From IMG/VR virus record IMGVR_UViG_3300029944_000009: DNA of 61,964 nucleotides; one strand, 5' to 3'. This stretch comes from a virus. The translations under genes and the position numbers were made by a program. Numbering within the stretch: the stretch's first letter is position 1; the number at the start of each line of letters is the position of its first letter. The notes beneath the pieces were generated by a model, which saw only the letters and a program-made list of their open reading frames with translations, was not told where the DNA came from and searched no databases. Shown piece by piece: positions 21,142-61,964 of this stretch.

Positions 21142-21392
21142 GCGGCGCGGAAATCCTCAAGCCGTTCGGGTCTTACCGCACGCCCGGTATCGACGAGAAC
21201 GTGGTCGAAACACTGGAAAACCTCTTAGAGCGAGCGGTATCCGGTGAGATTACCGGCGTAGCCGTGGCTTATATGACCGGGGGCAACCACGCCTGCTCCG
21301 AAGTGGCTTTCGGCAGCGCTGGCTACGCCGCGATGCTGGGGGCTACGGTAGCCATGCAGGCGACAATGCTTGAGGCGTGGAAAAACCTATGA
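21138..21392 (+). CDS. Hypothetical protein
   Basis: GTGA-coupled start inside track ORF 21054..21392. Confidence 0.45.
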   Translation: MSGAEILKPFGSYRTPGIDENVVETLENLLERAVSGEITGVAVAYMTGGNHACSEVAFGSAGYAAMLGATVAMQATMLEAWKNL

Positions 21393-23455
21393 ACGTCGCC
21401 GAACGCGCTTTGCACGCAGCCCGCCGTACGTACGCCGATGGCGGTGGCACAGATCCACGTGGAGCAAGCCAGCAACTCAGCCCTTCTGGCCTTTATAGCC
21501 AAGGTGCTGCGACCGCTGCTGCGTTGCCGCAGGCCAAGGGGCCGCCGCAGCAGATGCTGGGCATGCTGCAGAACCAGGGCGTTAAACCAGCCGAGCTGGA
21601 GAACGCCGGGTTGCCGGGAGCGCTTGGCGATCAACATGCGGTTACACGCGAGCAGCTCGCGGCTCATTTGCAAGGGGCGATGCCGGATATCCAAGAAGAG
21701 GTGCGCGGGTACAACCCAAGCGCCCCCGTGCAAGAGGTACCCGAGGACGCAGTAAGCAGCTGGGTAGAGAATAGGGCGCGCGAACGCGGCGGCCAGCACT
21801 TTGATATGATGGGGGGTGAGGAGCAACAGCACCACCGCCGCGCGGCGGGGCGCGAGTTCGACGAAAACTTTCAGGAAGACCCCGAGTTCTCGCATCAATT
21901 TACCGGCGGCCCAAAGCCGACTAAGTACGAAGAGTACACGCTGCCCGGAGGCGAGAACTACCGCGAACTGCTCTTGCATACAAAACCAGACCGCTTCGGG
22001 GAGCAATTAGCACATCGCTCCGGCCATTGGGATACGCCAAACGTCCTTGCGCATTTGCGTTTGTCAGACCGCACGGACCCCGAAGGCAAGAAGGTACTGC
22101 ATATCGAGGAGCTGCAGAGCGATTGGGGCCAAGAGGGCCGGAAGAAGGGCTTTGCGGAACCGGGAAAGCCCGGCGTGCCCAAAGGCCCGTATGTCGGATC
22201 CACGCAAGGTTGGACTGAGCTAGGGTTAAAGCGCGCCCTCGTTGAAGCGGCGCGCGGCGGCTACGATAAGATGGTCTGGACACCTGGGCAAGAACAAGCA
22301 GATAGATATGATCTGAGCAAGAAAATAAGCCACATTGTCCACCTCAACAACGGCGACGGCACGTACTACGCAAGCGCTGTGACCCACGGCGTCGATGGTG
22401 AGCCGGTTCATCTCGGCAATTACCTGACGCCGGAGCAGCTGGAAAACCACGTCGGCAAGGACGTCGCGCACAAGATCGTAGCGGGCCAAGGCGAAGACCT
22501 CGGCCGTGGCCTCAAGAAGCTCGGCGCCCACGATCTAAGCGTTGGCGGCGAGGGCATGAAGTCCTATTACGACAAGGTGCTGCCCAATACCCTTAGCAAG
22601 ATCACAAAGAAGCTAGACCCAACTGTGCGGCCGGAGATGAAAGAGCTATCGGCCGGCGAAGCAACGCCCAATGCGTTTCAGACCTGGGCAAGACAGAACG
22701 GCGATATGCGGCGGTCTGATCAGCTCGGCCAAGCTTGGCATCTCAAGGGCCGGGATGATCCCGCTGTCACGCAGTTCCTCGATCAGCACAAAGGCCGTGA
22801 GCTGCCGGGCATCGATATAACACCCACGATGCGAGCCAAGATCCTGCGCGGCTTGCCCGCGTTCAAACGGGGCGGCGCGATCGAGCCCACCGAAGCGCAG
22901 AAAGCCGCCGGCAATTACCAGAAGGAGCATATTTCCTTCCAGGGCTTGCCAATCAGCATTGAGACGAAAAAAGGTGCAGAACGCTCTGGCGTTGACGCTG
23001 AAGGCAAGCGCTGGCGCTGCGTGCTGCCGTACGATTATGGCTATATCAAGCGCACCGAGGGCGCCGATGGCGAGCACGTTGACGTGTGTATCGGCCCTCA
23101 CAAAGATAGTCAGAGGGTCTTTGTCGTCAACCAGAACGACCACGAGACGGGGGAGTTTGATGAGCATAAAATCATGCTGGGCTACAACACGCGGGATCAG
23201 GCTGAAGCGGCATACAAAGCGGGTTTCTCGGACGGCAAAGGCCATTTGCGCATGGGCCATCTCGTTGTAGCCACTCTTGAAGATTTGAAAGACTGGCTCA
23301 AACACGACGATACGACGCGCGAGAACCCACGTCAGAAACACTGGCAACACGATACGAATGCAGCTAAAAGCGACTTCGTAGACGCTGCCCTTCGCGTAAC
23401 AAACCACGGCGCGCATCCGCCCGCAGCCGTTTCTCTCGCCCGGCGGATGAAGTAA
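21389..23455 (+). CDS. Large head-associated protein with a C-terminal pyrophosphatase-like beta-barrel segment (tentative)
   Basis: ATGA-coupled ATG at 21389. IEELQSDWGQEGRKKG motif. The C-terminal YDYGYIKRTEGADGEHVDVCIGP...VFVVNQ...FDEHKIMLGY resembles PPase-like domains seen in phage head modules. Confidence 0.6.
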   Translation: MNVAERALHAARRTYADGGGTDPRGASQQLSPSGLYSQGAATAAALPQAKGPPQQMLGMLQNQGVKPAELENAGLPGALGDQHAVTREQLAAHLQGAMPDIQEEVRGYNPSAPVQEVPEDAVSSWVENRARERGGQHFDMMGGEEQQHHRRAAGREFDENFQEDPEFSHQFTGGPKPTKYEEYTLPGGENYRELLLHTKPDRFGEQLAHRSGHWDTPNVLAHLRLSDRTDPEGKKVLHIEELQSDWGQEGRKKGFAEPGKPGVPKGPYVGSTQGWTELGLKRALVEAARGGYDKMVWTPGQEQADRYDLSKKISHIVHLNNGDGTYYASAVTHGVDGEPVHLGNYLTPEQLENHVGKDVAHKIVAGQGEDLGRGLKKLGAHDLSVGGEGMKSYYDKVLPNTLSKITKKLDPTVRPEMKELSAGEATPNAFQTWARQNGDMRRSDQLGQAWHLKGRDDPAVTQFLDQHKGRELPGIDITPTMRAKILRGLPAFKRGGAIEPTEAQKAAGNYQKEHISFQGLPISIETKKGAERSGVDAEGKRWRCVLPYDYGYIKRTEGADGEHVDVCIGPHKDSQRVFVVNQNDHETGEFDEHKIMLGYNTRDQAEAAYKAGFSDGKGHLRMGHLVVATLEDLKDWLKHDDTTRENPRQKHWQHDTNAAKSDFVDAALRVTNHGAHPPAAVSLARRMK

Positions 23456-31570: not shown

Positions 31571-32101
31571 ATGGCATATGCATCAATATCCGGCCGAGCT
31601 AGGACAAGTGCTAGGAACCCGCAAGCGCATGCTATTTGTGACTTGTGCGGCTTCCGCTTCAATCACGTCGACCTACGCTGGCAGTATGACTGGGCGGGTT
31701 CCAGCCTTATCAACAAACGAAAGCTTGTATGCAATCGTTGTTACGATGTGCCGCAGGAGCAACTCCGCGCCATCGTGATCCCGGCCGATCCCGTGCCTAT
31801 CGTGCAGCCGCGCTTGGAGTATTTCCTGACGAACGAAACCGATGTGCGTATGCTCTCCGGCCAGGATACGATTGATCCGGTAACAGGTATCCCGATCCCT
31901 GGCACGACACCGCGTATTACGGAATTGAACAACACCCGTGTTACGCAGGAAGTAGGAGAGCCACCGCATGGTCTCAATCAAACCCCTGGCCTTGATCCTA
32001 ACGCCCCTGGGAATTCTAATCCTGGCGTGCCTCGGGGCTTTGTGGCAGACCCGCCGGAGATCGATAGCAATATCCCGAATACTGGACCGCTAACACCATG
32101 A
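31571..32101 (+). CDS. Zn-ribbon structural protein
   Basis: CDLCGFRF...CNRCYDVP. The C-terminus is Pro-rich. Confidence 0.6.
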   Translation: MAYASISGRARTSARNPQAHAICDLCGFRFNHVDLRWQYDWAGSSLINKRKLVCNRCYDVPQEQLRAIVIPADPVPIVQPRLEYFLTNETDVRMLSGQDTIDPVTGIPIPGTTPRITELNNTRVTQEVGEPPHGLNQTPGLDPNAPGNSNPGVPRGFVADPPEIDSNIPNTGPLTP

Positions 32102-34245
32102 CAGCCGGCGCCCAAATCCCTAATCTGACACCGGTTATCGCGCTTAATGGCACGGAGCTTTTCGAGCTTGTCCAGAGCGGTTCGACGTACCGCGCAAATC
32201 TGTCACAAATGGCCGCGTATATCGCAGCTGGCATTGTAGGGCCTGGTTTCCAGCCTGTTATCGCCGCTGCTGCGGGCAAAGTGCTTACCGGTCCTGCTTC
32301 TACGGGCGGCCCGCCGGGAACGCTGAACGTTGGCGGCGCTAACGGCGTCGTGGTGGCGGATAGCTCCGGCAACATCAGCGCGCAGACTACGCTTGCGGCC
32401 GGCGGCAGTTCCGCGCTTAGCTTTTCTGCTCGCTTCGCCCAGCGCGTCAATGTTCGCGATTTCGGTGCCGTAGGAAATGCGCTTACGGTTACGGATACGG
32501 TTACGTGCGTCAATGGCAATACCTCTATCACCTTCGGCACAACCACGTTCGCTGCTGCGACAGTCGGTGATGTAATACTCTTGCCTGGTTTAGGCGCGGG
32601 CTCTGCGCCCCTATCGGCCACGATCACGGCAGCTACGGGAACTAGCACAATCTCTGTCAATACCGCGCCATCTGTTACGATGACCGCGTCCAGTGTCACA
32701 TTTACGTATGGGTCAGCGCTGGATAGCACTGGGTTTTTTAACGCCAAGAATACAAATAAGCCCGTGTATATCCCGGCCGGTAACTATATCATCAATTCAT
32801 CAGGCTTTCATAGCATCACTCAAACACTAATTCTGGATCCGGGCGCAGTATTGACTATCGCGCCCGGGGTAACGTTGAATTTGCATGCGTTTTTGCAAGC
32901 TGGCCGCTATCAAGTGTTCAACCTAGTTGGAACTGGAAATGTAACCTTCTTTAGCCAACCCAGTGATTTCGTTTATCCCGAATGGTGGGGGGCCGTACCC
33001 TCATCCGTGGGCGACTCCACACAGGCATTCGTTGGCATGTTGGGCTGCGGTGCGCAAAGTGCGCGGTTGGATAATTCGACGTATCTTATCTCGGCAACGC
33101 TCACGATGCCTGGAAACTTCCTGCTTAGAGGAAGTCAGTTTTTATCAACAGTCCAGATGAACGACGCTACCGGATTATTGGATACATTCGTATGCACGAA
33201 TACGGGGAACATGACTTTCGACGGCGTTGCGTTTGCCAGATCGCAGACGGCTACGGCGGGTTCGGCTGTTCATCTGATTAACTCGTTTAACAACAAAATA
33301 ATTAATTGCACCTTCAACAGTCAGAACTACAATGGCGTATATTTAGGTAATAACGGCGGAACCGGGGCAAATCAAAATGTGATTTTTTCAAATAGAATTT
33401 CTGTTGCTGGAAGTGGTATTGTTATCGACTCAACCAATGGTTCGGTCAGTGATACCATCGTGCAATCTAATTATATTCACACCTGCCCCGTCGCCGGGGT
33501 TAGTATCCTCGGGGCCGGAACAAGCTCTTATATTATGGATAACGTCATTTTCAATAATGGATATGGCATTAATTGCGCGACGGGATTTACCGGCAAAATT
33601 AGACAAAACGATATCGATAGCAATACCAATGGCTCCCTCATCACGGGCGGTAGCGAATTTATGCTTTCGAATAATTGGCTTGGGCAGGGCACCGCATCGT
33701 CAAGCACGCAAGTTCTGAACTTGGTAAATTGCGTGAATGGTCAAATTAGCGACAATATTGTAGACGTAACCGTTGCCGCCGCATTCGGGATAGTCATGTC
33801 CGGTTGCAGTGCTATAAATCTTCCTGGCAATCACTTTAATCAGGGTGGCGACACGGCAAGTTTTGCGGTTGGTCTCACATTGAATGGGGCCACTGCATGT
33901 AGCGACATAAACATTACCGGCTCGCTGTGGGCGCCTAAATTCGCAGAACTATTCTTATCGCTCACAGGGGCTGGGCATAGCTTTATTAACATCGATATCT
34001 TGGCGTCGAGTAGCGGCGTCGTTGGTGGCACCGGCTCTGCAACCAATATGGCTGTGTTCAACCGCGCTAAAGGCTACAGTCAGCCATTTGTTGCGACGTT
34101 CGCAACGCTCCCCTCTGGCTCGCCAGCTGGAGCGGAGGCCACAATCTCCGATGCCGGAACGGTGACCTATCGCGCTAACGCAGCGGGTGGCGGAAGTAAC
34201 GTGGCCAGGGTGCTCTACACTGGCGCGGCCTGGGTTTACAACTAA
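32098..34245 (+). CDS. Tailspike with a right-handed parallel beta-helix (pectate-lyase-like depolymerase)
   Basis: VNVRDFGAVGN and PEWWGAVPSSVGDSTQAF motifs. Repeated NxIxxN-type coils (NVIFSNRI, IVQSNYIH, IMDNVIFNN). Confidence 0.8.
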   Translation: MTAGAQIPNLTPVIALNGTELFELVQSGSTYRANLSQMAAYIAAGIVGPGFQPVIAAAAGKVLTGPASTGGPPGTLNVGGANGVVVADSSGNISAQTTLAAGGSSALSFSARFAQRVNVRDFGAVGNALTVTDTVTCVNGNTSITFGTTTFAAATVGDVILLPGLGAGSAPLSATITAATGTSTISVNTAPSVTMTASSVTFTYGSALDSTGFFNAKNTNKPVYIPAGNYIINSSGFHSITQTLILDPGAVLTIAPGVTLNLHAFLQAGRYQVFNLVGTGNVTFFSQPSDFVYPEWWGAVPSSVGDSTQAFVGMLGCGAQSARLDNSTYLISATLTMPGNFLLRGSQFLSTVQMNDATGLLDTFVCTNTGNMTFDGVAFARSQTATAGSAVHLINSFNNKIINCTFNSQNYNGVYLGNNGGTGANQNVIFSNRISVAGSGIVIDSTNGSVSDTIVQSNYIHTCPVAGVSILGAGTSSYIMDNVIFNNGYGINCATGFTGKIRQNDIDSNTNGSLITGGSEFMLSNNWLGQGTASSSTQVLNLVNCVNGQISDNIVDVTVAAAFGIVMSGCSAINLPGNHFNQGGDTASFAVGLTLNGATACSDINITGSLWAPKFAELFLSLTGAGHSFINIDILASSSGVVGGTGSATNMAVFNRAKGYSQPFVATFATLPSGSPAGAEATISDAGTVTYRANAAGGGSNVARVLYTGAAWVYN

Positions 34246-40809: not shown

Positions 40810-43128
40810 ATGGCGCACCAGAGCTTAAAATTACAACCCGGGGTCGATAGCAATTTAACTCCGGCGTATAACGAGAGTGGAATCAGCGCGTCGAATCTCA
40901 TAAGGTTCTTGCCCGATCCGTCTGGCCGCGCCCTAGTTCAAAGTTTAGGCGGCTGGGTGCCTTACTACGCCACGCCTATCGCCAGCACAGTCTATAATAT
41001 CTGGCCTTGGGAAGATATCAACACCGCAACGCATCTGGCCGTAGGCTCGGCTGGCGGCACCGGCTTGCCCGCGCTCACGGTTATCCAGAACAATGCCTCG
41101 GCCGTGTTACAAGCGAACGACATAACGCCACAGCAATTTACGCTTAGCACGCCCATGACCACAGCCGTTGTCACTACGACGGCCGGCAGTCCGTTTGTGC
41201 TCTTCACCATCGCCGGGAGCGAGGTAACGCCGTTCGATAGTGTGATTATCGAAACCCCCGTCGCAGCGGGCGGCCTTATCCTCTACGGTCTGTACCCGAT
41301 CATAGCGGGCGACGGCAACACCGAGTTTACTATCGAAGCCACGGATGTTCTAGGCAACCCGCTCCCGGCATATTGGACAACCACCAGCGCGCCAACCACA
41401 GCGGCTTCAGGCACGGGCACCACCGCTACGCTCACGTATTCCGGCGGCTTCTTGTTTCCTTCCGGCGCCATCGTCACAATCGCAGGTGTCACACCGACGG
41501 GCTATAATGCTGTTGACGTAGTGGAGACCGGCAGTTCGGGTAGCGTAAGCTATGCCAACCCGACGACGGGCGCTCAGACTGTCGCGGGCACGATCAGCAC
41601 TTGGGCGCAATTGCCGCAGTACACCACCGCCAATGGCTCGGCTATTGTCTCCGTGCTTTTGCCCAACCACGGGTATACCGCCGGGGTGTCCACTTTCCCC
41701 GCGCTGGTCTCCACTACGCTAGGCGGCGTAACGATCCTGGGCGAGTACCAGGTCGCGTCTGTCGTATCACAAAGTGTTTTCACCATCGTGGCTTCTAAGC
41801 TGGCCACGAGCAACGCCACCGCGTTCGAGAACGGCAACAACATCGCGTTCCAGTTCTATGCCGGCCAGGGCGCACTTCCGAACGCTTCCGGCTACGGCAT
41901 CGGCGGCTACGGCCTCGGCGGCTACGGTACCGGCATCGCAGGCACCGCGCACCCATCCACCAATATAGTCGCCACGGATTGGACTCTCGCCAACTGGGGT
42001 AATATCCTACTCGCATGCCCATTCGGTGGCCCCATCTTCATGTGGGACCCGACACAAACCACATTAACCAACCCCGTTAACGCCACGGTCATCGCGCAAG
42101 CACCACCGGCCAACGCCGGGATGTTTGTGGCGATGCCTGAACGGCAGATTGTCGCGTGGGGTTCGACAGTTACTGGTATCATGGACCCGTTACTTATCCG
42201 CTGGTGCGATGTCGAAAATTTCACGGTCTGGGCAGGGCAACCGACAAACCAAGCAGGCGAATATCGTATTCCCACCGGTTCTAAAATCATCGGCGGGGGC
42301 CAGACACCGCAGCAAGGGCTGTTCTGGACAGATATCGGCGTATGGGCACAACAGTATGTTGGCCAACCATTCATCTATAGCTTCACCGAACTCGGGCGCG
42401 GCTGCGGCTTGGTCGCGCCCAAAGCGTTCGGCGTCCTCGGCGGCCAAGTCTTTTGGATGTCTCAGAACCAATTTTTTGTGCTGGTAAGCGGCCTCCCGGA
42501 GCCGCTGCCTTGTCCGGTTTGGGATATCGCTTTCCAGGATCTCGATACCGCGCAGCTGGGCGCGATTCGCTGCGCCACGAATTCCTATTTTAATGAAATC
42601 GCATGGTACTTCCCGGTAATCGGCTCGAACGGCATCAATACTAAATACGTGAAGTTTAATTACGTGCTGCAAGCCTGGGATTACGGAACGCTTGGCCGCG
42701 CGGCGTGGACAGATCAATCCGTTCTCGGGGCGCCCATTGGCGCCGGCACCGATAATTTTCTTTATCAGCACGAAGTAGGTAGCACCGCGAATGGGGCGCC
42801 GATGGCGTCTAGCTTCACTACCGGCTACTTCTCGATGAACGAAGGCGATATGAAAGTCTTTATCGACGAGATCTGGCCGGATATGAAATGGGGCCAGTAT
42901 CAGGGCGCGCAGAATGCCCAGGTGGATGTTACCTTCAGCATCACTGATTACCCGAACCAGCCGCCCGTGGTATATGGGCCATATAGCTTCAACGCCACAA
43001 GCACCTACCTCACGCCGCGCATGCGAGGGCGCCTCATGGCGATCACAGTGCGCAGCGCACCGGCCAACACCACCTTCTGGCGCCTCGGAAACCTGCGCTA
43101 CCGCGCCATGCCAGATGGGAAGTACTAA
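40810..43128 (+). CDS. Large tail-tube/nozzle protein, positionally like T7 gp12
   Basis: Size of 772 aa and gene order relative to the internal-core genes. Confidence 0.6.
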   Translation: MAHQSLKLQPGVDSNLTPAYNESGISASNLIRFLPDPSGRALVQSLGGWVPYYATPIASTVYNIWPWEDINTATHLAVGSAGGTGLPALTVIQNNASAVLQANDITPQQFTLSTPMTTAVVTTTAGSPFVLFTIAGSEVTPFDSVIIETPVAAGGLILYGLYPIIAGDGNTEFTIEATDVLGNPLPAYWTTTSAPTTAASGTGTTATLTYSGGFLFPSGAIVTIAGVTPTGYNAVDVVETGSSGSVSYANPTTGAQTVAGTISTWAQLPQYTTANGSAIVSVLLPNHGYTAGVSTFPALVSTTLGGVTILGEYQVASVVSQSVFTIVASKLATSNATAFENGNNIAFQFYAGQGALPNASGYGIGGYGLGGYGTGIAGTAHPSTNIVATDWTLANWGNILLACPFGGPIFMWDPTQTTLTNPVNATVIAQAPPANAGMFVAMPERQIVAWGSTVTGIMDPLLIRWCDVENFTVWAGQPTNQAGEYRIPTGSKIIGGGQTPQQGLFWTDIGVWAQQYVGQPFIYSFTELGRGCGLVAPKAFGVLGGQVFWMSQNQFFVLVSGLPEPLPCPVWDIAFQDLDTAQLGAIRCATNSYFNEIAWYFPVIGSNGINTKYVKFNYVLQAWDYGTLGRAAWTDQSVLGAPIGAGTDNFLYQHEVGSTANGAPMASSFTTGYFSMNEGDMKVFIDEIWPDMKWGQYQGAQNAQVDVTFSITDYPNQPPVVYGPYSFNATSTYLTPRMRGRLMAITVRSAPANTTFWRLGNLRYRAMPDGKY

Positions 43129-43468: not shown

Positions 43469-44254
43469 ATGCCGCTCCTCCCCGGTAAAAACGAGATCGG
43501 CCACAACATCGAGGAAATGGAAAAAGCGGGGCACCCCCGTGCGCAAGCCATAGCGGCAGCCTTGAATACCGCACGCCGCGCGCACCGGGAAGAAGGCGGC
43601 CCGCTGCAGCCGCCCCCCGGCCCCGCACTTCGCCAGCCGGTACCGGCGAATACTGGTATCAATACGCCCGGCGGCATCCCCGGCGTAGAAGGCATCGCGC
43701 CTATTTCAGGTTTCGGGAACGAACCGGCTGAGAGCAGCGGCCTCGGCCCGGAAGCACCGACCAAAATCCACACCGGCCCAATCCGCTCGCAAGTATCCGG
43801 CCGCACCGATCATCTGCCCGTGCATGTGCCGTCTGGTGCGTACGTCATTCCAGCCGATATCGTTAGCGCCATGGGTGAAGGTAACACCGAGGCCGGGTTC
43901 AAGGTGGCTAAATCCATTTTTGCACAACCGTTCTACGGCACCAAACGCCCCGGCGATGCAGACCCTTACGACCCCAGTGCGCTGCCGTACGACGCTAATG
44001 CCCGGCCTTATTCGCACGAAGAGACGCCGTACAGCCAGCCGATGCCGGGAAAGGCTGCCGGCGGAGCGCACGGCGACCAGGGCGTGCCTGTGGTCCTCGC
44101 GGGCGGCGAGTTCGTCGTAAATCCCGGCGAAGTGCGGCATGTAGGCGAAGGAAATCTCGATGATGGGCATAAATCCCTAGACCAATTCGTTTTACAGATG
44201 CGCCACAAGACTGTTAAGACGTTGAAGAACCTCCCTGGTCCGAAGACCTCATAA
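43469..44254 (+). CDS. Internal virion protein (tentative)
   Basis: Position. Contains GHPRAQAIAAALNTARRAHREEGG and GAYVIPADIVSAMGEGNTEAG motifs. Confidence 0.55.
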   Translation: MPLLPGKNEIGHNIEEMEKAGHPRAQAIAAALNTARRAHREEGGPLQPPPGPALRQPVPANTGINTPGGIPGVEGIAPISGFGNEPAESSGLGPEAPTKIHTGPIRSQVSGRTDHLPVHVPSGAYVIPADIVSAMGEGNTEAGFKVAKSIFAQPFYGTKRPGDADPYDPSALPYDANARPYSHEETPYSQPMPGKAAGGAHGDQGVPVVLAGGEFVVNPGEVRHVGEGNLDDGHKSLDQFVLQMRHKTVKTLKNLPGPKTS

Positions 44255-44267
44255 AGGACGCTCCACG

Positions 44268-44792
44268 ATGGAAGCCCAAACGCTAGAACGCCAAGCCGCC
44301 GAGGACGCCCCCCTCGTACGTACCGCCACGCAATCCGATTTCGCTTCGGTGATGGACCTGTGCCTAGCCTGCCACCACGAGAACGGCTTCGTTAAAGCCA
44401 ACCGGCAGAAGATGGCCAACGATATTTGGGCGGGGCTCACACGGGAGCGCGCTATCGTCGGCATTATCGGCGGCTTGAACGGCAAGCCAGCCGAGGCGTG
44501 CGTCGTTCTACGACTCAGCACCATTGATTATTCCGACGATGACGCCTTCACGGACCAGTTTGTTTATGTCGCCGAGCCGTACCGGCGCGAGAAGATCGGC
44601 CGGGCCAAGTTGCTTCTGGAATTCGCCATGAAGGTATCCGATGACACGGGTATCCCGCTTATGATGGGCATCCTCTCGAACACACGCACTGCCGCGAAAG
44701 TTCGTCTTTACGAGCGCGTCCTCGGCAAACCGGCAGGGGCTTTCTTCCTCTACAACGCATCCACACGCATCCACCTAGAAAGCGAAGGCTAA
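44268..44792 (+). CDS. GNAT-family acetyltransferase
   Basis: VYVAEPYRREKIGRAKLLLEFAMK fits GNAT motif A. Confidence 0.65.
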   Translation: MEAQTLERQAAEDAPLVRTATQSDFASVMDLCLACHHENGFVKANRQKMANDIWAGLTRERAIVGIIGGLNGKPAEACVVLRLSTIDYSDDDAFTDQFVYVAEPYRREKIGRAKLLLEFAMKVSDDTGIPLMMGILSNTRTAAKVRLYERVLGKPAGAFFLYNASTRIHLESEG

Positions 44793-44798
44793 ACCCCC

Positions 44799-47700
44799 AT
44801 GGGCGGCAAGAACAGCACCAGTACCAATCAGGTCAGTATTCCGCCGCAGGTTCTGGCGCAGTACAACGCCGTCAACGCCAACGCCGCTTCTGTCGCGAGC
44901 ACGCCCTTCCAGCAATATAGCACCAACCCCAATGCCTTTGTCGCGCCGCTCACGGCTGAACAGAACCAGGGAATATCCGCCACAAATCAGTACGCCAACT
45001 CCGCGCAGCCGTTTTACGGCGCGGCGGGAAGCACGTTAGCTAATAACGTTGGCACGAGCGATTACAACGCAGCCACCGGCCTCGCGGCCAATAACGTAGC
45101 CGCGCCGCTCTATGGCGCGGCGACAGCCGAAACAGTGGCTGGTTCCGGGCAGGCGAATGCCTCCCAGCTAAACGGCAGTGCGATCAATCAGTACCTCTCG
45201 CCGTATCTCGGAGACGTGTACGGCTCGGCCCTCGCCGGGCAGCAGATGACCAATGCGCAGCAGGCCAGCCAGCTTCAGGGCTCCGCCATCGGCTCGGGTG
45301 CCTTCGGCGGTGACCGCTCGGGCATCGCCCAGGCCAATCTCGCGTACCAGCAGAATTTGGCGAACAACCAGGTCAACGCGAACACGCTCAACACCGGGTA
45401 CCAAACCGCGCTGGGCACGGCGCAACAGCAACAAGGCGTCAATCTGTCGGCAGAACAAGCCAATCTGGCGCGCAGCACGGCCGCCGGGTCGCAGCTCGCC
45501 AATATCGGCACATCGGCTGAACAGAACCAGCTCGCCCAAGCCGGGCAACTCACGAATACCGGCACGGCGGCGGAGAACGCGCAGCTATCACAAGGACAGG
45601 CCATCGAGGGGCTCGGCACATCCGTGCAGCAGCAGGGCCTCGCTGGAGCGCAAGCCGAACAGGCAGCGGGCGCAACGCAACAGACCACCGAACAGCAGGG
45701 CGATACCGCACTTTATAACCAGTTTCTGCAACAGCAGGCTTACCCGTTCCAGACGGCGCAGTTTATGGCGAACATCGCCGAGGGCACCGGCGCGCTTTCC
45801 GGCACAACCACAACCTCGACACAGCCGAGTTCCTTCTTTTCCGACAAGCGGCTGAAGGAAAACATAAAGGTTATCGGCAAGACTTACGACGGGCAGAAGA
45901 TTTACAAGTTCAATTACAAAGGCGAAAAAGCCACGCAAATCGGCTTCATGGCCCAGGACGTGGAGAAGAAACATCCGGAAGCCGTTGGCTCGGCCCTCGG
46001 ATACCGCACGGTTGACTACGACAAGGCGACGGAGAAAGCCGCGAAACGCGGGCATTTCGATACGGGCGGCGGCCTCGCAGGCCCAGACGATAAACAGGAC
46101 GACGGGGGTGTGCAGAGCATCGCGGGGGCGCAAACGCCTCCGCCCGCTCCCTCGGTTCAAGTCGATCCGCAGGACCACGCGGCTCCGCCGCCGCAGGCGC
46201 AACCAGATGTGGTGGCCAACGCCGTCGCCAAGGCTAACCCCCAGGGCTACGGCGGTGATATAAACTCGGGTTCTAAGGCGGCACCCTCGTCTTTGCCAAC
46301 TGCGGCTTGGGCGCAGAACAAAGGCAATTCTGGTGCGCAGACCATGGATCAGGTGACAAACTTGATCGGTGCTTTGGCGCGCGGGGGCCGCGCTCGTGAA
46401 GGCTTGGGGTTTGATCTCGGCGGCGCGCCAGACCCGCAAGATAATTCGCAACAACAGAAAATCAACGATGGCGGCGTGCAGCCAGTAACTACGCCCGATG
46501 CTGTATCCGCGCCCTCAGCTAAGGGCTATGTTGGAGATATTAATGCCGGCGCCAAGGCAGCGCCGTCTTCGCTGCCTACCGCCGCTTGGGCGCAGAATAA
46601 AGGCAACTCCGGCGCCCAAACCATGGACCAGATTACCAATCTGATCGGCGCGCTCAAACGCGGCGGCGGTGTTGGCTTGCGCTGGCCCGAGCACCATGAA
46701 GGTGGTGCCGCGCTGCCGGAACGCGCTGGGTTGGGTTTTGCAGATGGTGGAGATCCGCTGCCTGCGTACTACGATGCCTTGACGAACGGCGCGGGCGATC
46801 CGTATGGCGAGCTTAATAATCCGGCTATGCGTCTCGGTATTCCCTCGGGCGGCAAGCCCGGCGCGCATGGCTCGCTTATGATCGGGCACGCGCCCCCAGC
46901 CGCCCCCGGCGGCCAGGATACCGTTGCCGATATCAGCAACACCATGGGCGACTACGAGCAGGCCGCTAAAGACCTTGATAGTGCCGGAGCTTACGCAGGG
47001 GGGCTATACCAGGACGAGGCCGGGGGCGGAAGTTCGGTTGGTGCGGGCGTCCAAGGTGACAGCATGGGGCCGCGCGCGCGAGGCGGCCTCGTACCGCATA
47101 GGCAGCACCGCGATACCGGCGGCCCAACTGCGCAGCTGCCCGTGGGTGAGTGGACTAGCGACGACAGTAGCAACGGCCTGTCCGACGCAATTAGCGATTA
47201 CAACACGATCAAGGGCATGTACGGCACAGGCAAAGACGCGCTGTTTGGGCAAGCCGCGAGCGGCTCCGGTCCTAACTCTGTGGCCGCAACGCGCGGCCTC
47301 ATCGGCGCGGGCGGTGATTACAATTGGGATGGCAGCTGGACGCACGGCGCGTTGGACGGCCAAGCCGCGACTGATACCGCCCCGGCTTCGCGCGGCCTCG
47401 TAGGGGCTGGAGGCAGCTATAGCCCCGAAGCCGGGTACTTCGCCGCCGGGGGCCGGGCGCACTTCGACGATGGTGGTTATATGGGCGACGTGCAGCCCAA
47501 CCAGCCGCCGCAATTGCAGAAGCCCACGCCTCCGCCCCAGCAACAGCAGAAATCCGGCGGTATGGGGGGCCTGGGAGGTGGTGGCATGATGGGCATGCTC
47601 GCGCGCGGTGGCCGTACGGGTTTCGATAGCGGCGGGACTGCAGAAGGCGATCAGGCGGCACAAGATCAGCAGATCGCTAGTAACCCTGAGACCACAAGCA

Positions 47701-50081
47701 AAAGCGGTGGTGGCGGGGGTATGATGGGCATGGCTAAAATGTTCCTGGCCAACGGCGGCCGTACTGGTTTCGATGCGGGCGGCTCTCCAACATACAGCAC
47801 GGACGGCAATGCTACGCTGGTTGATACCGGCGGCGGAGGCGCGGATGATAGTTGGATTGACGATGCCATGCGCCTCGCCGGGAATGTTATGGGCACCAAT
47901 CAACAGCCTACCCCGCGCCCGCCGCCGCAGAACCCGGCCGCAGGTCAGGCGTCTGCTGCGCGTCCGCAAACCGCAGCCGCTCAGGTTGCCGCGCCGCCTT
48001 CAGGTGGCCTTGCGCCCACTGCGCAGACAGCACCCGCACCAACTCAGGCCCGGGCCCCGGCGCCAACGCCGCTTACCCCGCCTCCCGCCTCCCGGTCCGC
48101 CGCTCCTGCGCCGCTACCGACACAAGCGGTCGCGCCTCAGCCCATTGCGTCGCCCTCGCCTTCCTCAACCCCAGCGCAAGGTGGTTTGCAGCCAACCGGC
48201 GGCGCAGCTGTAAATCCTTATGCTTACGAAGCGGCCACAGACCAGGTGGAGAGCGGAGGCAACCCCACTGCGGTTAACCAGAACTCTGGCGCGACCGGTC
48301 TGGACCAGTTTACATCTAGGACGTATCTCCAATACGCCGCCGCGCACCCGCAACAGTTCTCGGGTATGTCTCAGGATCAGGTCCTAGCTACGCGCACGGA
48401 CCCGGCGTTCTCGCACGACGCGACGATGTGGCTAGCCAACCAGAACGCGCCTGTTCTCCAGAAAGCTGGCGTAGATCCCACACCGGAAAACCTCTACCTT
48501 GCGCACCAGCAAGGAGCCGGTGGCGCTACCGCGCTGCTTAATAACCCAAACCAGCCTGCCTTGGCGGTATTGACCGGCGTATACGGCGATCAAGCCTCGG
48601 CTGAGAAAGCGATCACGCAGAACGGCGGCAATCTGAAAATGACAGCCGGGGAGTTTGCTAGCACGATCACCGGTAGGTATGACGCAGCCGCGCAGAAAGT
48701 GGGCGATAGCTGGCAGAATGGCGGCAATTTCCCCAGCCTACCGGCGCCGGGCAGCGCGCCCAGCGGCCTCGCAGGTGCGGGCACCACAACCAGCCCCGTC
48801 GCGCAGAAGATCGCGGACACGAACCGCGCTGAAACGGATCAAAATACGTGGTTTGGTAAAAACCAGAACTGGCTCGTACCGGTGCTAACCGGCCTTGGCG
48901 GCATGGCGTCCTCGAACTCGCGTTACCTCGGCTCTGCCGCGCTGCAAGGTTTAGGCGCGGGGGCCGCTGCTTACGAGGGTACACAGAACGCTATGGGCGA
49001 GCGCGCTCACCAGGCTTTGGAGAGCGCGCAGCAACCTGCGCAGCAAGCAATTTCTGAGCAACAGGCTCAGGCCAGCACCATGGGAGGCGAAGCCTCTCTC
49101 GCAAGCCAGCGCACGCTCTCGTACGTATACGGCCAAGGCTACATGTTTACGGACAAGACAACGAACCCGCCAACCGTGCAGTACCTCAACCCGGCGCAAG
49201 CCCAGAGTATCGCCAATTCCGGCGCCGCGACACTTGCGCCCGGCACGCCACCACCGGCCGGAGCCTCTAGCGCGCCAACGCAAAACCCAGCTGGCTCTTA
49301 CGATAAGGGCGGGAACTACGTGCCCACTCCGGTAGCGGCACCCGGGGAGTACCCGGATACGCGGCAGCTTGTGACGCAATTATCCCTGGCTGGCTCGTTC
49401 AACCAACAGCACGCTGCCGACGCCCAGACCGTGGCGCAACAGGACCAGGCCAGTAGAGGTGCGCAGCAAGGGCAAACTATCGTCCAAGGCATGCTTAATG
49501 ACGCCCGCAGCCTGCCAAGCACGAGCCTTGGCGCGTTGGGCAGCGCAAAACTGGACTACGGCAATAAGCTAAATTCCGTGGCCTCCGCTCTCGGCCTCCA
49601 ACCTGTTGTGGCGCCGGGCGACCTCGCTAATGCGGAGGCTATCAACAAGGGCGCCGTGCAGTTGGCCTCGACCTTAGCCTCATCCATCGGCGGCGGTGGA
49701 GCTGAAGTTTTCCAAGACGCGCTTAGCGGTGTGCCGCACATGGGCAATACTCCGGCGGGCTTTGCGCGCCTGGCCTCTACCATAAACCAGATGCAGCAAT
49801 ATACCCGCGATACGGCTAGTTGGGATGATGGCTTTATTTCTAAATACGGCGTGATCCAGGGCGCGCAGGACAAGTTCGCCGCGCAGAAACCACCGCAGTC
49901 ATACGTCAACGCGGCTATAATGCAGGCCATCAACCCGAAAGACGTTTCCAACTGGACGCCAATGGTACAGAAATACGCTAACAACCCCCAGGCGCTAGCT
50001 AATTTTGAGGCGAGTATCGACAACATTTATGGTGGTGGCGCGGGCGCCGTGTTTGTGAATTCAGTCAATGGCAAGCAGTAA
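44799..50081 (+). CDS. 1760-aa ejection/internal-core protein carrying a Peptidase_S74 module and a lytic transglycosylase domain
   Basis: Q/N/A-rich N-terminus, SDKRLKENI... (S74), repeated GGR..GG motifs, a Pro/Ala-rich linker, an SLT motif, and a long C-terminal region. Confidence 0.85.
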   Translation: MGGKNSTSTNQVSIPPQVLAQYNAVNANAASVASTPFQQYSTNPNAFVAPLTAEQNQGISATNQYANSAQPFYGAAGSTLANNVGTSDYNAATGLAANNVAAPLYGAATAETVAGSGQANASQLNGSAINQYLSPYLGDVYGSALAGQQMTNAQQASQLQGSAIGSGAFGGDRSGIAQANLAYQQNLANNQVNANTLNTGYQTALGTAQQQQGVNLSAEQANLARSTAAGSQLANIGTSAEQNQLAQAGQLTNTGTAAENAQLSQGQAIEGLGTSVQQQGLAGAQAEQAAGATQQTTEQQGDTALYNQFLQQQAYPFQTAQFMANIAEGTGALSGTTTTSTQPSSFFSDKRLKENIKVIGKTYDGQKIYKFNYKGEKATQIGFMAQDVEKKHPEAVGSALGYRTVDYDKATEKAAKRGHFDTGGGLAGPDDKQDDGGVQSIAGAQTPPPAPSVQVDPQDHAAPPPQAQPDVVANAVAKANPQGYGGDINSGSKAAPSSLPTAAWAQNKGNSGAQTMDQVTNLIGALARGGRAREGLGFDLGGAPDPQDNSQQQKINDGGVQPVTTPDAVSAPSAKGYVGDINAGAKAAPSSLPTAAWAQNKGNSGAQTMDQITNLIGALKRGGGVGLRWPEHHEGGAALPERAGLGFADGGDPLPAYYDALTNGAGDPYGELNNPAMRLGIPSGGKPGAHGSLMIGHAPPAAPGGQDTVADISNTMGDYEQAAKDLDSAGAYAGGLYQDEAGGGSSVGAGVQGDSMGPRARGGLVPHRQHRDTGGPTAQLPVGEWTSDDSSNGLSDAISDYNTIKGMYGTGKDALFGQAASGSGPNSVAATRGLIGAGGDYNWDGSWTHGALDGQAATDTAPASRGLVGAGGSYSPEAGYFAAGGRAHFDDGGYMGDVQPNQPPQLQKPTPPPQQQQKSGGMGGLGGGGMMGMLARGGRTGFDSGGTAEGDQAAQDQQIASNPETTSKSGGGGGMMGMAKMFLANGGRTGFDAGGSPTYSTDGNATLVDTGGGGADDSWIDDAMRLAGNVMGTNQQPTPRPPPQNPAAGQASAARPQTAAAQVAAPPSGGLAPTAQTAPAPTQARAPAPTPLTPPPASRSAAPAPLPTQAVAPQPIASPSPSSTPAQGGLQPTGGAAVNPYAYEAATDQVESGGNPTAVNQNSGATGLDQFTSRTYLQYAAAHPQQFSGMSQDQVLATRTDPAFSHDATMWLANQNAPVLQKAGVDPTPENLYLAHQQGAGGATALLNNPNQPALAVLTGVYGDQASAEKAITQNGGNLKMTAGEFASTITGRYDAAAQKVGDSWQNGGNFPSLPAPGSAPSGLAGAGTTTSPVAQKIADTNRAETDQNTWFGKNQNWLVPVLTGLGGMASSNSRYLGSAALQGLGAGAAAYEGTQNAMGERAHQALESAQQPAQQAISEQQAQASTMGGEASLASQRTLSYVYGQGYMFTDKTTNPPTVQYLNPAQAQSIANSGAATLAPGTPPPAGASSAPTQNPAGSYDKGGNYVPTPVAAPGEYPDTRQLVTQLSLAGSFNQQHAADAQTVAQQDQASRGAQQGQTIVQGMLNDARSLPSTSLGALGSAKLDYGNKLNSVASALGLQPVVAPGDLANAEAINKGAVQLASTLASSIGGGGAEVFQDALSGVPHMGNTPAGFARLASTINQMQQYTRDTASWDDGFISKYGVIQGAQDKFAAQKPPQSYVNAAIMQAINPKDVSNWTPMVQKYANNPQALANFEASIDNIYGGGAGAVFVNSVNGKQ
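45840..46055 (+). other. Peptidase_S74 intramolecular-chaperone autoproteolysis domain, residues about 348-420 of the 1760-aa protein
   Basis: S348-DKRLKENIKVIGKTYDGQKIYKFNYKGEKATQIGFMAQDVEKKHPEAV...YRTVDYDK. Confidence 0.8.
48213..48555 (+). other. Lytic transglycosylase (SLT-like) domain within the 1760-aa protein
   Basis: DQVESGGNPTAVNQNSGATGLDQFT...YLAHQQGAGGA. Confidence 0.75.
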
Positions 50082-52461
50082 CGATCTCCCGCAGCTTCCG
50101 CCGTCGGTATACGCTGCCGGCGATGCACCCCCGGCGCCCGCGCCGCAGACCGGCTCCGCGTCTGCGGCGCAACCCTTGCCGCAGCTCCCCGCCTCAGTTT
50201 ATGCGCCTCCACCCGCTGCAGGCATGCCGGGTGGCCCTGCCGCGCCGAATTACAGCAACGCCTCGTGGGGCGATGTGGGCAAAGCCGCGCTGCAAGCGCT
50301 CCCCGCTTCCGCTTTGGCCACCGGTAAGGGTATCGCCCAATCACTCAATCCCCTGAACCAGGGCGGTACCGGCTGGGCAAGTCCGGTGGGCGGCACCACT
50401 TGGGCAAATGCTACAGGCATCGTGCCGACAGTGGCTAAGGCTGCCTTCGGCGCGGGCGAGGAGCTTGGCAACTCCGTTGGCGATGCGCTGGGCATGTCTC
50501 CTGGCACTGATACAAGCGATTCGAGCACGGCCGCTTTCAACGCGCTTAAGCAACACTATGGTCAGTATACATCCGAAGGCGGCATTAAGAACGCTATCGC
50601 CACAAATCCGGTTGGCACGGCCTTGGACGCAGCAACGGTAGCCGTGCCGACGCTATCCGCCGTTGGTAAAGTAGACGCGGCCACGGCCGCTGGCGTTGCG
50701 GATCGGTCTGGCGCGCTCACAGCACCCGCCAAAGCAGCCGTAAGCCAAGCATTCCCGGCCACGCCCGCAACGGCCTTTACCAACCCTGAATTTACCCAGG
50801 CTTTCGGCGAGGCCGCGCTGCCCGCCGGTAAGAGCATCTCCAGCGCCACGGCGAAAGAGGCCCTTCTCAAATCGCAAGGTCTCCCGGCGCCTACACCTGT
50901 CGTCACCGGCATAGCCGGGCCGCCGGGCGCCGCTACTGACGCGATCGCAGCCGGGCGCCAAGCGGTCGCATTCAAAGTCGCCAATATCGCGGCGCCGTTA
51001 GCCAAGGATGACACAAGCCTGGGCGCGGCCCTCGCGCGTGCTCGGGCGAATTCGCTCAACAACATTGATAGCCTGTACGACAGCACGCGCGATGTTGACG
51101 GAACACTCACCCCTGGATTTTCCCAGGGGCTTATCGACAATGTCCATGCTGCGGTAGACGCGAGTAGCAAGGGTTCCACGCTATCTTCTAAGATTGTAAA
51201 CGCACCCCTGACCTACCCTCAGACGCAGGCCGCCCTCGCGGCGCTACAGAAAAACGTGATCAGTGCGGATGCTGGCGGCATGCCGATGACCCCCGCAGAT
51301 ATGGCGGATGTTCGAACCGAACTGGGTACCATTCAGGGCATGGCCAAGAACGGCAATGACGCGCGGATGGTCGGGGCGATAAAAAGCGCTTTTGACGATC
51401 ACATGGCCGATCAATATAGCAACGGCGCTTTGCTCGATGAAAACGGCGCCGTAAGCCCGAACAGCGCGGATTTAGGCGCCAAGCTCGCGGCCGCACGCTC
51501 GGCGTATCAAACCCACGCCAATACCTTCTGGCAGCCTGACGGCTGGGCCGGGCAACAAGTCGCCAAAGCCACGAACCTGCTGCCAGGCGAAAGTGTGGAC
51601 GACAACACCGGGCTTAAAATCCCAGGCGCCGGAGATCAAGGAAAAGCGCAAGGCCAGCTAATCAACAGCATCCTCAACCCCGCTACCCTTGCGAACAAAC
51701 CCGGTGGTCTTGGCGTTTACGATACGCTGGCCGGCACGGACGCTTCGCCCGGCCTGCTCGACGATGAAGGTAAGGCTGCGCTCAACGCGCATATCCGCCA
51801 GCTCGCTGGGCAGACTAACAACGGCGTCCTGGCCGCTAAGCCGGGCGCTGTGAGCGCTTTTGCGCAATCGCCCCTTGGCCAGCGTGTATTTTCACCAGAA
51901 GAGCAAACGGCACTGCACCAGCTGAGCGCGGCCGATGACTTATATACCGCGAAACCAGCACCAGGAACACGCACACAGTCATTAGTTCATGCACTGGTAG
52001 GTCAGGGCGCCCGGGCGGGTGCGGCTGGTATAGCGGGCGCCGCAGCGGGCCATATGCTCGGCGCCGGGCCGTTCGGTGCTGTAGTGGGCGGCATCGCAGG
52101 GACCGCAGCAGAGCATGTGGTTGACCCGCTTGTGCAACGCTTTACCGGTGCGTCCAGTGAAGGCGCCCCCGCGTCGGTGGTACCTCGTATCGCGAACAAT
52201 TTGGGTACGCCCATCCGCAAAGGATTTCCAATGGCCGCAGCTGCTAACGTATCCCAGAACGCCCAGCCACACGCCAACGGCGGCCGCATCGGGCGCAAAG
52301 AAGGCGGCAAGGTTGGGTTCGACCACGTGGCGAAGGCGGCTTCTCTCGTACGCGCCGCCGCCATCGCGCGGGGCAAGCACAATAAGACCACGGAACCGTT
52401 GCTAGACCAGCCAGATGAGGCCATTACAAAAGCCCTGGCCATCGCGAACCAGCACTTTTAG
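50068..52461 (+). CDS. Internal-core/ejection protein, positionally like T7 gp15
   Basis: 797 aa and Ala/Gly-rich. Overlaps the upstream gene by 14 nt. Confidence 0.65.
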   Translation: MASSNDLPQLPPSVYAAGDAPPAPAPQTGSASAAQPLPQLPASVYAPPPAAGMPGGPAAPNYSNASWGDVGKAALQALPASALATGKGIAQSLNPLNQGGTGWASPVGGTTWANATGIVPTVAKAAFGAGEELGNSVGDALGMSPGTDTSDSSTAAFNALKQHYGQYTSEGGIKNAIATNPVGTALDAATVAVPTLSAVGKVDAATAAGVADRSGALTAPAKAAVSQAFPATPATAFTNPEFTQAFGEAALPAGKSISSATAKEALLKSQGLPAPTPVVTGIAGPPGAATDAIAAGRQAVAFKVANIAAPLAKDDTSLGAALARARANSLNNIDSLYDSTRDVDGTLTPGFSQGLIDNVHAAVDASSKGSTLSSKIVNAPLTYPQTQAALAALQKNVISADAGGMPMTPADMADVRTELGTIQGMAKNGNDARMVGAIKSAFDDHMADQYSNGALLDENGAVSPNSADLGAKLAAARSAYQTHANTFWQPDGWAGQQVAKATNLLPGESVDDNTGLKIPGAGDQGKAQGQLINSILNPATLANKPGGLGVYDTLAGTDASPGLLDDEGKAALNAHIRQLAGQTNNGVLAAKPGAVSAFAQSPLGQRVFSPEEQTALHQLSAADDLYTAKPAPGTRTQSLVHALVGQGARAGAAGIAGAAAGHMLGAGPFGAVVGGIAGTAAEHVVDPLVQRFTGASSEGAPASVVPRIANNLGTPIRKGFPMAAAANVSQNAQPHANGGRIGRKEGGKVGFDHVAKAASLVRAAAIARGKHNKTTEPLLDQPDEAITKALAIANQHF

Positions 52462-61169: not shown

Positions 61170-61964
61170 ATGATCCATCACGGCAATCTCACGATCACCA
61201 AAGAAAATGCCAAGCTGTACGCGGGCATCATCGAAGTAACTGGTGATCTCAGAATCAGCCAGGGCGCGAGCCTCACCGCTCCGGTGCTGGCGAAGACCGG
61301 CTCCGTTGTCCTCAGCCAGGGCGCGAGCCTCACCGCTCCCGTGCTGGCCGAGGTGACCGGCTCCGTTGACCTCGGCCAGGGCGCGAGCCTCACCGCTCCG
61401 GTGCTGGCGAAGACCGGCTCCGTTGTCCTCAGGGAGGGCGCGAGCCTCACCGCTCCGGTGCTGGCCGAGGTGACCGGCTACGTTGTCCTCAGGGAGGGCG
61501 CGAGCCTCACCGCTCCGGTGCTGGCGAAGACCGGCTACGTTGTCCTCAGCCGGGGCGCCAGCCTCACCGCTCCGGTGCTGGCCGAGGTGACCGGCTACGT
61601 TGTCCTCAGGGAGGGCGCCAGCCTCACCGCTCCGGTGCTGGCCGAGGTGACCGGCTACGTTGTCCTCAGGGAGGGCGCCAGCCTCACCGCTCCGGTGCTG
61701 GCGAAGACCGGCTACGTTGTCCTCAGGGAGGGCGCCAGCCTCACCGCTCCGGTGCTGGCGAAGACCGGCTCCGTTGTCCTCAGCCAGGGCGCGAGCCTCA
61801 CCGCTCCGGTGCTGGCCGAGGTGACCGGCTCCGTTGTCCTCAGCCAGGGCGCGAGCCTCACCGCTCCGGTGCTGGCCGAGGTGACCGGCTCCGTTGTCCT
61901 CAGGGAGGGCGCGAGCCTCACCGCTCCGGTGCTGGCCGAGGTGACCGGCTCCGTTGTCCTCAGG
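61170..61964 (+). CDS. 5' part of the tandem 19/20-aa repeat protein, open to the right window edge
   Basis: ATG at 61170 after AAGGAAC. MIHHGNLTITKENAKLYAGIIEVTGDLRISQ is followed by 12 repeat units. The ORF is missing from the track because no stop occurs before the edge. Confidence 0.8.
   Translation, partial: MIHHGNLTITKENAKLYAGIIEVTGDLRISQGASLTAPVLAKTGSVVLSQGASLTAPVLAEVTGSVDLGQGASLTAPVLAKTGSVVLREGASLTAPVLAEVTGYVVLREGASLTAPVLAKTGYVVLSRGASLTAPVLAEVTGYVVLREGASLTAPVLAEVTGYVVLREGASLTAPVLAKTGYVVLREGASLTAPVLAKTGSVVLSQGASLTAPVLAEVTGSVVLSQGASLTAPVLAEVTGSVVLREGASLTAPVLAEVTGSVVLR
61255..61964 (+). repeat. Coding tandem repeat with 57/60-bp units, the same family as 1..738
   Basis: Near-identical units run to the last base of the window. 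Confidence 0.95.

Follow-up and report, generated by a model that had tools for sequence, protein, structure and literature searches.

Intramolecular chaperones of the Peptidase_S74 family (S74) sit at the extreme C-terminus of external phage fibres and spikes, as in the endosialidase endoNF/K1F, GA-1 gp12 (PDB entry 3GUD) and T5 pb1, in which an elongated, presumably trimeric segment precedes the domain, cleavage falls N-terminal to the serine of a Ser-x4-Lys dyad, and the domain is discarded after cleavage. In these phage C-terminal intramolecular chaperone domains, contacts with the upstream fibre help to trigger the cut. The closest functional analogue with an internal position is MYRF, whose domain for intramolecular chaperone auto-processing (ICA) cleaves itself on trimerisation and frees an N-terminal trimer from a large remainder with a hydrophobic membrane segment (PMC8326128, PMC3742443). 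The MYRF cut lies N-terminal to the serine (P586|S587) and is abolished by S587A and K592A; trimerisation of the ICA domain is needed for it and is enough by itself, contacts with the stalk not being needed (PMC8326128). A review of jumbo phages places S74 only in the context of tail fibres or tail spikes and of MYRF (PMC7824862), and full-text literature searches returned no published account of S74 domains in proteins of the internal virion, ejection or tape-measure type. Here we describe an S74 domain that lies within a polyprotein of 1760 residues, a predicted ejection (internal-virion) protein, encoded in a single uninterrupted open reading frame (ORF) at 44799-50081 (+) of the IMG/VR virus record IMGVR_UViG_3300029944_000009. 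This 61,964-nt stretch is referred to as the window, and the analysis was computational throughout.

The original prediction for this DNA had read an S74 signature with a conserved Ser348 from residues 348-420. The peptide it quoted and its coordinates were correct, and the hidden Markov model (HMM) search it suggested matched PF13884 (Peptidase_S74, ‘chaperone of endosialidase’) to residues 348-396, covering positions 1-57 of the 58 in the profile (E 7.9e-9; 36.1 bits, curated cut-off 22). The match is far beyond chance, and the S74 assignment is confirmed. When the S74 region alone was compared with the PDB by phmmer, only spurious RCC1 and nuclease matches appeared, and a family profile was needed for a match to S74 structures. 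With a profile built from 53 homologues, the alignment began at Ser348 and paired it with the first residue of the GA-1 chaperone in its released form (3GUD, E 0.0047), and the MYRF ICA domain (7DC3) was matched weakly (E 0.3). An AlphaFold2 (AF2) model made from the family alignment gave a small beta-rich domain with a predicted local distance difference test score (pLDDT) of 93-96 at residues 350-410, with strands at 353-361, 367-373, 379-382, 396-399 and 402-405 and a short terminal helix at 407-420. We place the compact S74/ICA-type domain at residues 348 to about 420 (45840-46058, +), about 20% along the chain.

The active-site residues are strictly conserved. Ser348, whose codon is at nt 45840 (...TQPSSFF|SDKRLKENIKVIGKTYDGQKIYKFNYKGEKATQIGFMAQDVEKKHPEAVGSALGYRTVDYDK...), Asp349 and Lys353 were invariant in each of three alignments, comprising 53/53, 34/34 and 239/239 domain instances. 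Like endoNF/K1F, GA-1 gp12 and T5 pb1, the window domain begins with S-D-x-R-x-K, and the Ser-x4-Lys spacing of S348/K353 is that of endoNF S911/K916 and of MYRF S587/K592. Lys353 (45855-45857, +; Ser + 5) is the predicted general base of the dyad. The predicted scissile bond, Phe347/Ser348 (45837-45842, +), would again lie N-terminal to the serine, as indicated by the alignment to 3GUD, the analogy with MYRF and the invariance of the serine. In the weak alignment to MYRF (E 0.3), F371 and Y373 of the window protein stand opposite both tyrosines of the HYRY motif (Y615/Y617 of the ‘cutter hole’). The endoNF mutant S911A does not cleave and still folds; if cutting needs the dyad and folding does not, the strict conservation of these residues speaks for selection on cleavage.

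The window protein differs from these fibre proteins in what follows the domain. From Ser348 to the end of the protein there are 1413 residues, of which about 1340 lie C-terminal to S74 and include a lytic transglycosylase and a Gly-zipper-like segment, so the domain would be kept, capping a functional product at its N-terminus. The claim that S74 stands mid-protein in a very large, transglycosylase-bearing chain therefore holds, and neither the window protein nor the family described below shows the classical placement of S74 at the C-terminal end of a tail spike or fibre. The internal position and the large remainder are shared with MYRF. We regard this likeness as an analogy and not as common ancestry of the whole protein, MYRF being a eukaryotic transcription factor anchored in the endoplasmic reticulum, with its ICA domain placed after a triple beta-helix and before a 36-residue coiled coil. 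Across 34 full-length relatives, column identity was 0.4-0.7 over residues 1-420 and about 0.1 thereafter, a sharp fall that marks a module boundary at the end of S74. An overlapping minus-strand ORF (45588-46454) was rejected; it had no support, and the plus frame has thousands of homologues.

The conserved N-terminal module upstream of the predicted cut (residues 1-347; 44799-45839, +) is rich in Gln, Ala, Asn and Gly (19% A, 15% Q, 11% G and 10% N), in agreement with the Q/N/A-rich segment of 347 residues noted before. It is predicted to consist mostly of long alpha-helices (16-33, 53-83, 101-115, 126-165, 171-210, 216-252 and 257-331 in the AF2 model, pLDDT 50-82). Invariant or near-invariant positions include K4, P15, Y22, Y40, F47-V48-A49, G167-F169-G170-R173 and Q295...Y315-P316, and a match to phrog_6121 (‘virion structural protein’) spans residues 85-413.

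The arrangement is no peculiarity of this protein: it is family-wide. A scan of IMG/VR gave at least 495 relatives, from which 80 loci (L004-L083) were taken. In 59 of these the ORF is not cut by a contig end, and all 59 uncut ORFs encode 1150-1745 residues with the serine at residue 258-464. An HMM search with a profile of residues 1-445 against 1.84 billion cluster representatives (50%-identity clusters) returned 2,705 representatives at E<=1e-30; the best matches were nearly all 1100-1870 residues long with S74 near residue 300, and 142 of the 144 new top representatives were at least 1100 residues long and matched at their N-terminus. A word-indexed search had pointed to short extensions only, all its proteins being <=750 residues; we rejected that picture as an artefact of fragments and database content on the basis of the IMG/VR loci and the exhaustive search. 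The closest deposited relative by tblastn, UOF80297.1 ‘internal virion protein D’ of an uncultured Caudoviricetes from Manatee Spring (MW202675.1, 61 kb), has the identical layout, with S74 at 277-327 and SLT at 601-694 (E 4e-26) in one ORF. Over residues 1-429 it is 45% identical to the window protein, the portal of that genome is 62% identical, and the acetyltransferase gene again lies upstream, although the protein is shorter (1185 residues) and its automated annotation is silent on S74. An internal S74 is thus what members of this very large family from uncultured phages normally have, and the window protein is an ordinary member. The original prediction had not met a description of the layout for T7 gp16-type proteins, and the literature searches agree; what appears to be undescribed is the arrangement at the level of the family, with the tandem S74 domains below.

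The modules behind S74 vary. Pfam searches of 34 full-length members found S74 in 34/34, SLT in 4, GH108 in 3 and VanY in 1, which indicates a peptidoglycan-hydrolase payload that is swapped among relatives. The S74 domain itself can be repeated. Among the 61 complete ORFs that were scored (L001, L002 and the 59 from IMG/VR), 9 have two or three copies, as do 96 of the 144 top representatives, a ranking that is biased towards doubles. Tandem copies lie about 320 residues apart with intact dyads, and the second follows a Gly/Ala-rich, low-complexity hydrophobic sequence that is not fibre-like. To judge from these features, tandem S74 domains have the look expected of a repeated self-cleaving junction and not of a fibre cap. 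As a separate observation, the copies within one protein are near-identical (P0138-P0281; L018, L027, L045, L063, L067, L071 and L075), and three copies are rare; such close likeness suggests recent duplication or concerted evolution.

Further evidence comes from relatives in which the gene is split. In Sinorhizobium phage phiM5, gp27 (468 residues; ‘putative tailspike/chaperone of endosialidase’) was detected in the virion proteome, is homologous to residues 6-410 of the window protein (hhalign probability 99.8%, E 2e-28) and ends 77 residues after its serine; next to it come gp28 (‘internal virion protein/exolysin’) and then two further internal virion proteins. Brucella phage Tb has an acetyltransferase (ORF22), a structural protein (ORF23), a small ORF24 and a peptidoglycan hydrolase (ORF25) in that order. 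ORF23 ends in an S74 domain 55% identical to that of the window protein, while its N-terminal part is not detectably related to the window protein. In both phages, then, the protein finishes with S74, as is classical, and the lysin has a gene of its own, whereas the window has one fused ORF. Nearer to the window, the close relative L003 encodes a 406-residue protein with a stop 82 residues after the serine and carries the Gly-zipper module in the next ORF. A strict motif search placed the Gly-zipper segment within the S74 ORF at 14 loci and within a separate ORF immediately downstream at 7 (L002, L003, L044, L046 and L048-L050). SLT likewise belongs to the S74 ORF in some loci and to the very next ORF in others. 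The polypeptide link past S74 is therefore dispensable. Taken with the tandem copies, the split forms and moving gene boundaries indicate that S74 behaves as a reusable junction module in this family.

We favour cleavage at Ser348 into two products, on the grounds of the invariant dyad, the split homologues and the tandem S74 domains. The fuller reading, in which F347|S348 is a self-cleaving junction within an ejection-protein polyprotein of a podophage of about 62 kb, seems to us moderately probable; trimerisation, cleavage, virion location and a role in ejection are its inferred parts, while the identities of the domains, the invariance of the dyad, the architecture across the family, the fused and split genes and the tandem S74 copies of relatives are shown by the comparisons. 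Three nascent chains would associate through S74, as in endosialidase, GA-1 gp12 and MYRF, possibly helped by the helical N-terminal module. Trimerisation would complete the Ser348/Lys353 active site, and each chain would then be cut between Phe347 and Ser348. The N-terminal product, of about 35 kDa, would become a trimeric component of the virion that corresponds to mature phiM5 gp27. The C-terminal product of about 143 kDa would carry the S74 trimer at its N-terminus together with the transglycosylase and the Gly-zipper, and during infection it would belong to a DNA-ejection conduit, digesting peptidoglycan and inserting into the membrane.

Several observations weigh against this reading. 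The S74 domain is minimal: at about 70 residues it is shorter than the endoNF, GA-1 and T5 domains and lacks their long helical bundle, its terminal helix has 14 residues in the AF2 model, and the long C-terminal coiled coil that is reported to drive trimerisation of the MYRF ICA domain is missing (PMC8326128). Brucella phage Tb ORF23 likewise stops straight after the last S74 strand, and from the models the window domain looks like a compact sub-type in which the C-terminal helical bundle is minimal or absent. The window protein has one S74 domain only, even with search filters off. Foldseek of the whole model of residues 1-445 against the PDB returned generic helical bundles and chromoshadow noise and no S74 structures, likely because a monomer model of an intertwined trimer was used and low-confidence helices dominated it. 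In the N-terminal module, hydrophobic periodicity was helical (3.6-3.9) in some segments with no clear heptad signal, and its profile showed no homology by hhalign to P22 gp26 (probability 0.15%) or to T7 gp14, T7 gp15 and P22 gp20 (probabilities <=0.11%). BLASTP of the part after S74 against phiM5 gp28 and Tb ORF25 gave no significant similarity, so the synteny argument draws on gene order and domain type. The placement inside the virion comes from gene position and from the annotations of others, and the support for cleavage is comparative in all family members.

A different location for the N-terminal module would be compatible with cleavage. The module could be an external or tail-channel part, such as a needle, plug or short fibre, with the ORF as a whole being a tail-tip lysin fusion. 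S74 classically caps a fibre or spike, phiM5 gp27 is annotated as a tailspike, and the highly conserved extreme N-terminus is what would be expected of a docking site. Furthermore, in P22 the gene for the trimeric coiled-coil needle, gene 26, lies between the hub gene 10 and the ejection genes, a position matching that of the window ORF. We nevertheless consider this rather unlikely. The module lacks homology to P22 gp26, a beta-helix tailspike candidate is already present at 32098-34245, the second S74 copies follow non-fibre sequence, and the ‘tailspike’ annotations most likely derive from the S74 match alone. The description of the N-terminal piece as ‘fibre-like’ is doubtful, the module being helical, phiM5 gp27 lying in a cluster of internal virion proteins and second S74 copies coming after Gly/Ala-rich sequence.

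Alternatively, S74 might serve only as a trimerisation or folding nucleus, with the 1760-residue chain remaining an intact trimer in the virion like an uncleaved tape-measure-type protein. The minimal domain without a long C-terminal helical bundle would fit this, and so would the sequences upstream, which are helical in the window protein and Gly/Ala-rich before second copies, as against the fibre contacts that assist cleavage in the classical domains. A phage tape-measure protein (9B45, E 7e-10) is also among the matches of the transglycosylase profile. We think an uncleaved chain quite unlikely: Ser, Asp and Lys are invariant in every instance aligned, and the dyad is a requirement for cleavage; split-gene homologues stop right after S74, which implies that the two halves function as separate chains; and in MYRF the ICA domain needs nothing beyond its own trimerisation in order to cut (PMC8326128). 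Finally, the arrangement in a single assembled contig such as the window could in general be an artefact, the HMM match having arisen by chance or two genes having been falsely joined through an error of assembly or a frameshift. We regard this as excluded by the comparisons, given a Pfam score above cut-off, the same long ORF in 59 independent IMG/VR contigs and more than 140 representatives, and S74 plus SLT in MW202675.

Returning to a self-cleaving junction, a broader proposal is that S74 has been co-opted in this family from fibre caps to self-cleaving, trimerising junctions of an ‘ejectosome polyprotein’, with one to three cuts turning a product of 1200-1870 residues into equimolar trimeric parts of the machinery for DNA ejection. 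We regard the case for this as evenly balanced. It would be a phage counterpart of MYRF processing, and genes would be free to undergo fission and fusion at S74 junctions. More speculatively, cleavage might be timed at assembly or ejection and act as a latch that releases a tail-docked N-terminal trimer and the enzyme- and membrane-active remainder from each other. The assembly, stoichiometry and deployment of podophage ejection proteins are poorly understood outside T7 and P22, and a built-in trimerising autoprotease, if true, would explain how one gene yields several components whose ratio and oligomeric state are fixed. It would also extend S74 biology beyond tail fibres and spikes and provide a prokaryotic-virus parallel to MYRF. 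We expect that the idea would moderately surprise phage structural biologists; it is easily tested, and the family is large.

The annotation of the family is of practical interest as well. phiM5 gp27, Brucella Tb ORF23, P0012 and P0073 carry the public labels ‘putative tailspike’ or ‘tail fiber domain-containing protein’. These labels apparently arose from the S74 match only, and gene context points instead to an internal-virion-protein cluster. The family may therefore be systematically mis-annotated as tail fibre or tailspike, which matters for pipelines that predict receptor-binding proteins.

Behind S74, residues 417-1000 (46047-47798, +) form a Gly/Ala/Pro/Asp-rich, poorly conserved linker with a column identity to relatives of 0.04-0.17. 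It contains seven copies of R-x-G-[FY]-[AD]-x-G-G, compared with 0.68 expected (2000 shuffles, maximum 5); the median per family member is 3, and A-R-G-G often stands just before the motif. Strings like it also occur near the C-terminus of the next ORF (50068-52461; ANGGRIGRKEGG) and in the upstream 261-residue ORF (43469-44254), and the motif could be a docking or processing signal common to co-packaged proteins. The linker also contains an internal tandem duplication of about 90 residues, identified by local alignment (residues 467-544 and 560-652; 46197-46754, +; score 253), with the near-identical core KAAPSSLPTAAWAQNKGNSGAQTMDQ[VI]TNLIGAL.

A Pro/Ala-rich stretch lies N-terminal to the lytic transglycosylase, which spans residues 1139-1305 (48213-48713, +) with a predicted catalytic Glu1151 (nt 48249-48251) in the motif QVESGGNP. 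An SLT domain had been placed at 48213-48555. The transglycosylase itself stands, with a span that reaches to about 48713, while Pfam SLT on its own falls just under threshold in the window protein (20.1 bits against 21.3). In a profile search of the PDB the domain matched phiKZ gp144 (3BKH) at E 1.3e-16 and MltE at about 1e-7, and the AF2 model (pLDDT >90) matched 3BKH in Foldseek at E 5e-4, so that the fold is close to that of gp144; tblastn also returned SLT-containing internal virion and tape-measure proteins. The match to T7 gp16 chains was borderline (E 0.08-0.11) and limited to gp16 residues 16-109. Like the window protein, T7 gp16 is a large virion protein that contains a lytic transglycosylase of family 1, and its gene likewise comes after those for the tail; unlike the window protein, gp16 has its transglycosylase at the N-terminus and lacks S74. 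Beyond the transglycosylase, neither the PDB profile search nor Foldseek of residues 1130-1760 found similarity to gp16. The label ‘T7 gp16-type’ can thus be kept by analogy, for the enzyme, the large size and the gene position, and not for similarity beyond the borderline domain match; like ‘fibre-like’, it is loosely supported.

The hydrophobic Gly-zipper-like segment spans residues 1357-1397 (NWLVPVLTGLGGMASSNSRYLGSAALQGLGAGAAAYEGTQN; 48867-48989, +). With a column identity of 0.48 it is the sole strongly conserved block after S74 (…GLGGMASSNSRYLGSAALQGLGAGA…), and Pfam Gly-zipper_YMGG was matched in one relative. It is a candidate membrane-insertion element. An all-helical C-terminal domain follows at residues 1539-1754 (49413-50060, +; AF2 pLDDT 75-94), for which Foldseek of the model of residues 1130-1760 found no fold match in the PDB.

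The neighbouring genes run in the order hub protein, two small ORFs, GNAT-like acetyltransferase, 1760-residue ORF, 797-residue ORF and 448-residue ORF. This order corresponds to the tail/internal-virion block of T7 (12-13-14-15-16) and P22 (10-26-14-7-20-16), and podophages of the T7, LUZ24 and Brucella-Tb types have genes for internal virion (ejection) proteins at the position of 44799-50081. The placement downstream of tail tube or hub genes recurs in MW202675, phiM5, Tb and T7. The 772-residue virion structural protein at 40810-43128 (+) is a probable tail hub or nozzle (phrog_3287, E 9e-52). Its syntenic counterparts in MW202675 and MW202711 are labelled ‘stabilization protein’ (‘phage stabilization protein’), and it did not match Brucella Tb ORF21. 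The acetyltransferase (44268-44792, +; weak Pfam GNAT matches and phrog_1249) is a conserved syntenic neighbour, also found in MW202675 and in Brucella phage Tb (ORF22). The 797-residue ORF (50068-52461, +) overlaps the stop of the 1760-residue ORF; it has no family match and by position is probably another internal virion protein. Searches of the 772- and 797-residue proteins against the PDB with phmmer gave no match, and an NCBIfam search added nothing useful. In the 261-residue ORF at 43469-44254 (+), the first 41 residues (MPLLPGKNEIGHNIEEMEKAGHPRAQAIAAALNTARR) match phrog_2423 (E 4.7e-6), a short N-terminal module also present in other phages.

The two ends of the window share an exact 56-bp overlap within an array of 60-bp tandem repeats, which makes a phage genome of about 62 kb, closed into a circle, the most likely reading of the window. 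Its genes include those for an SU10-type portal, a 304-residue major head protein and the tailspike candidate mentioned above. Genes for a tail tube, sheath or tape measure were not found in the window, which indicates a podophage. The 60-bp (20-residue) repeat lies at 1-736 and 61261-61964, with about 12 copies per end, inside the ORF at 21-1055 (+); it looks like a repeat of about 24 copies, with the genome cut inside the array. A probable large terminase with intein-like signals is also present, an 856-residue ORF beside the portal gene (15896-18466, +) with weak matches to Hint_2 (residues 515-543) and to intein splicing (residues 785-813), which suggests an intein inside it. A 15-bp tandem repeat at 10920-11363 (29.6 copies, 89% match) lies inside the minus-strand ORF 10569-11501 and would encode a pentapeptide-type repeat. 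Between the portal and head genes, the 692-residue protein at 21377-23455 (+) carries a C-terminal PF18823 ‘InPase’ domain (E 1.3e-48), an unusual cargo for a phage.

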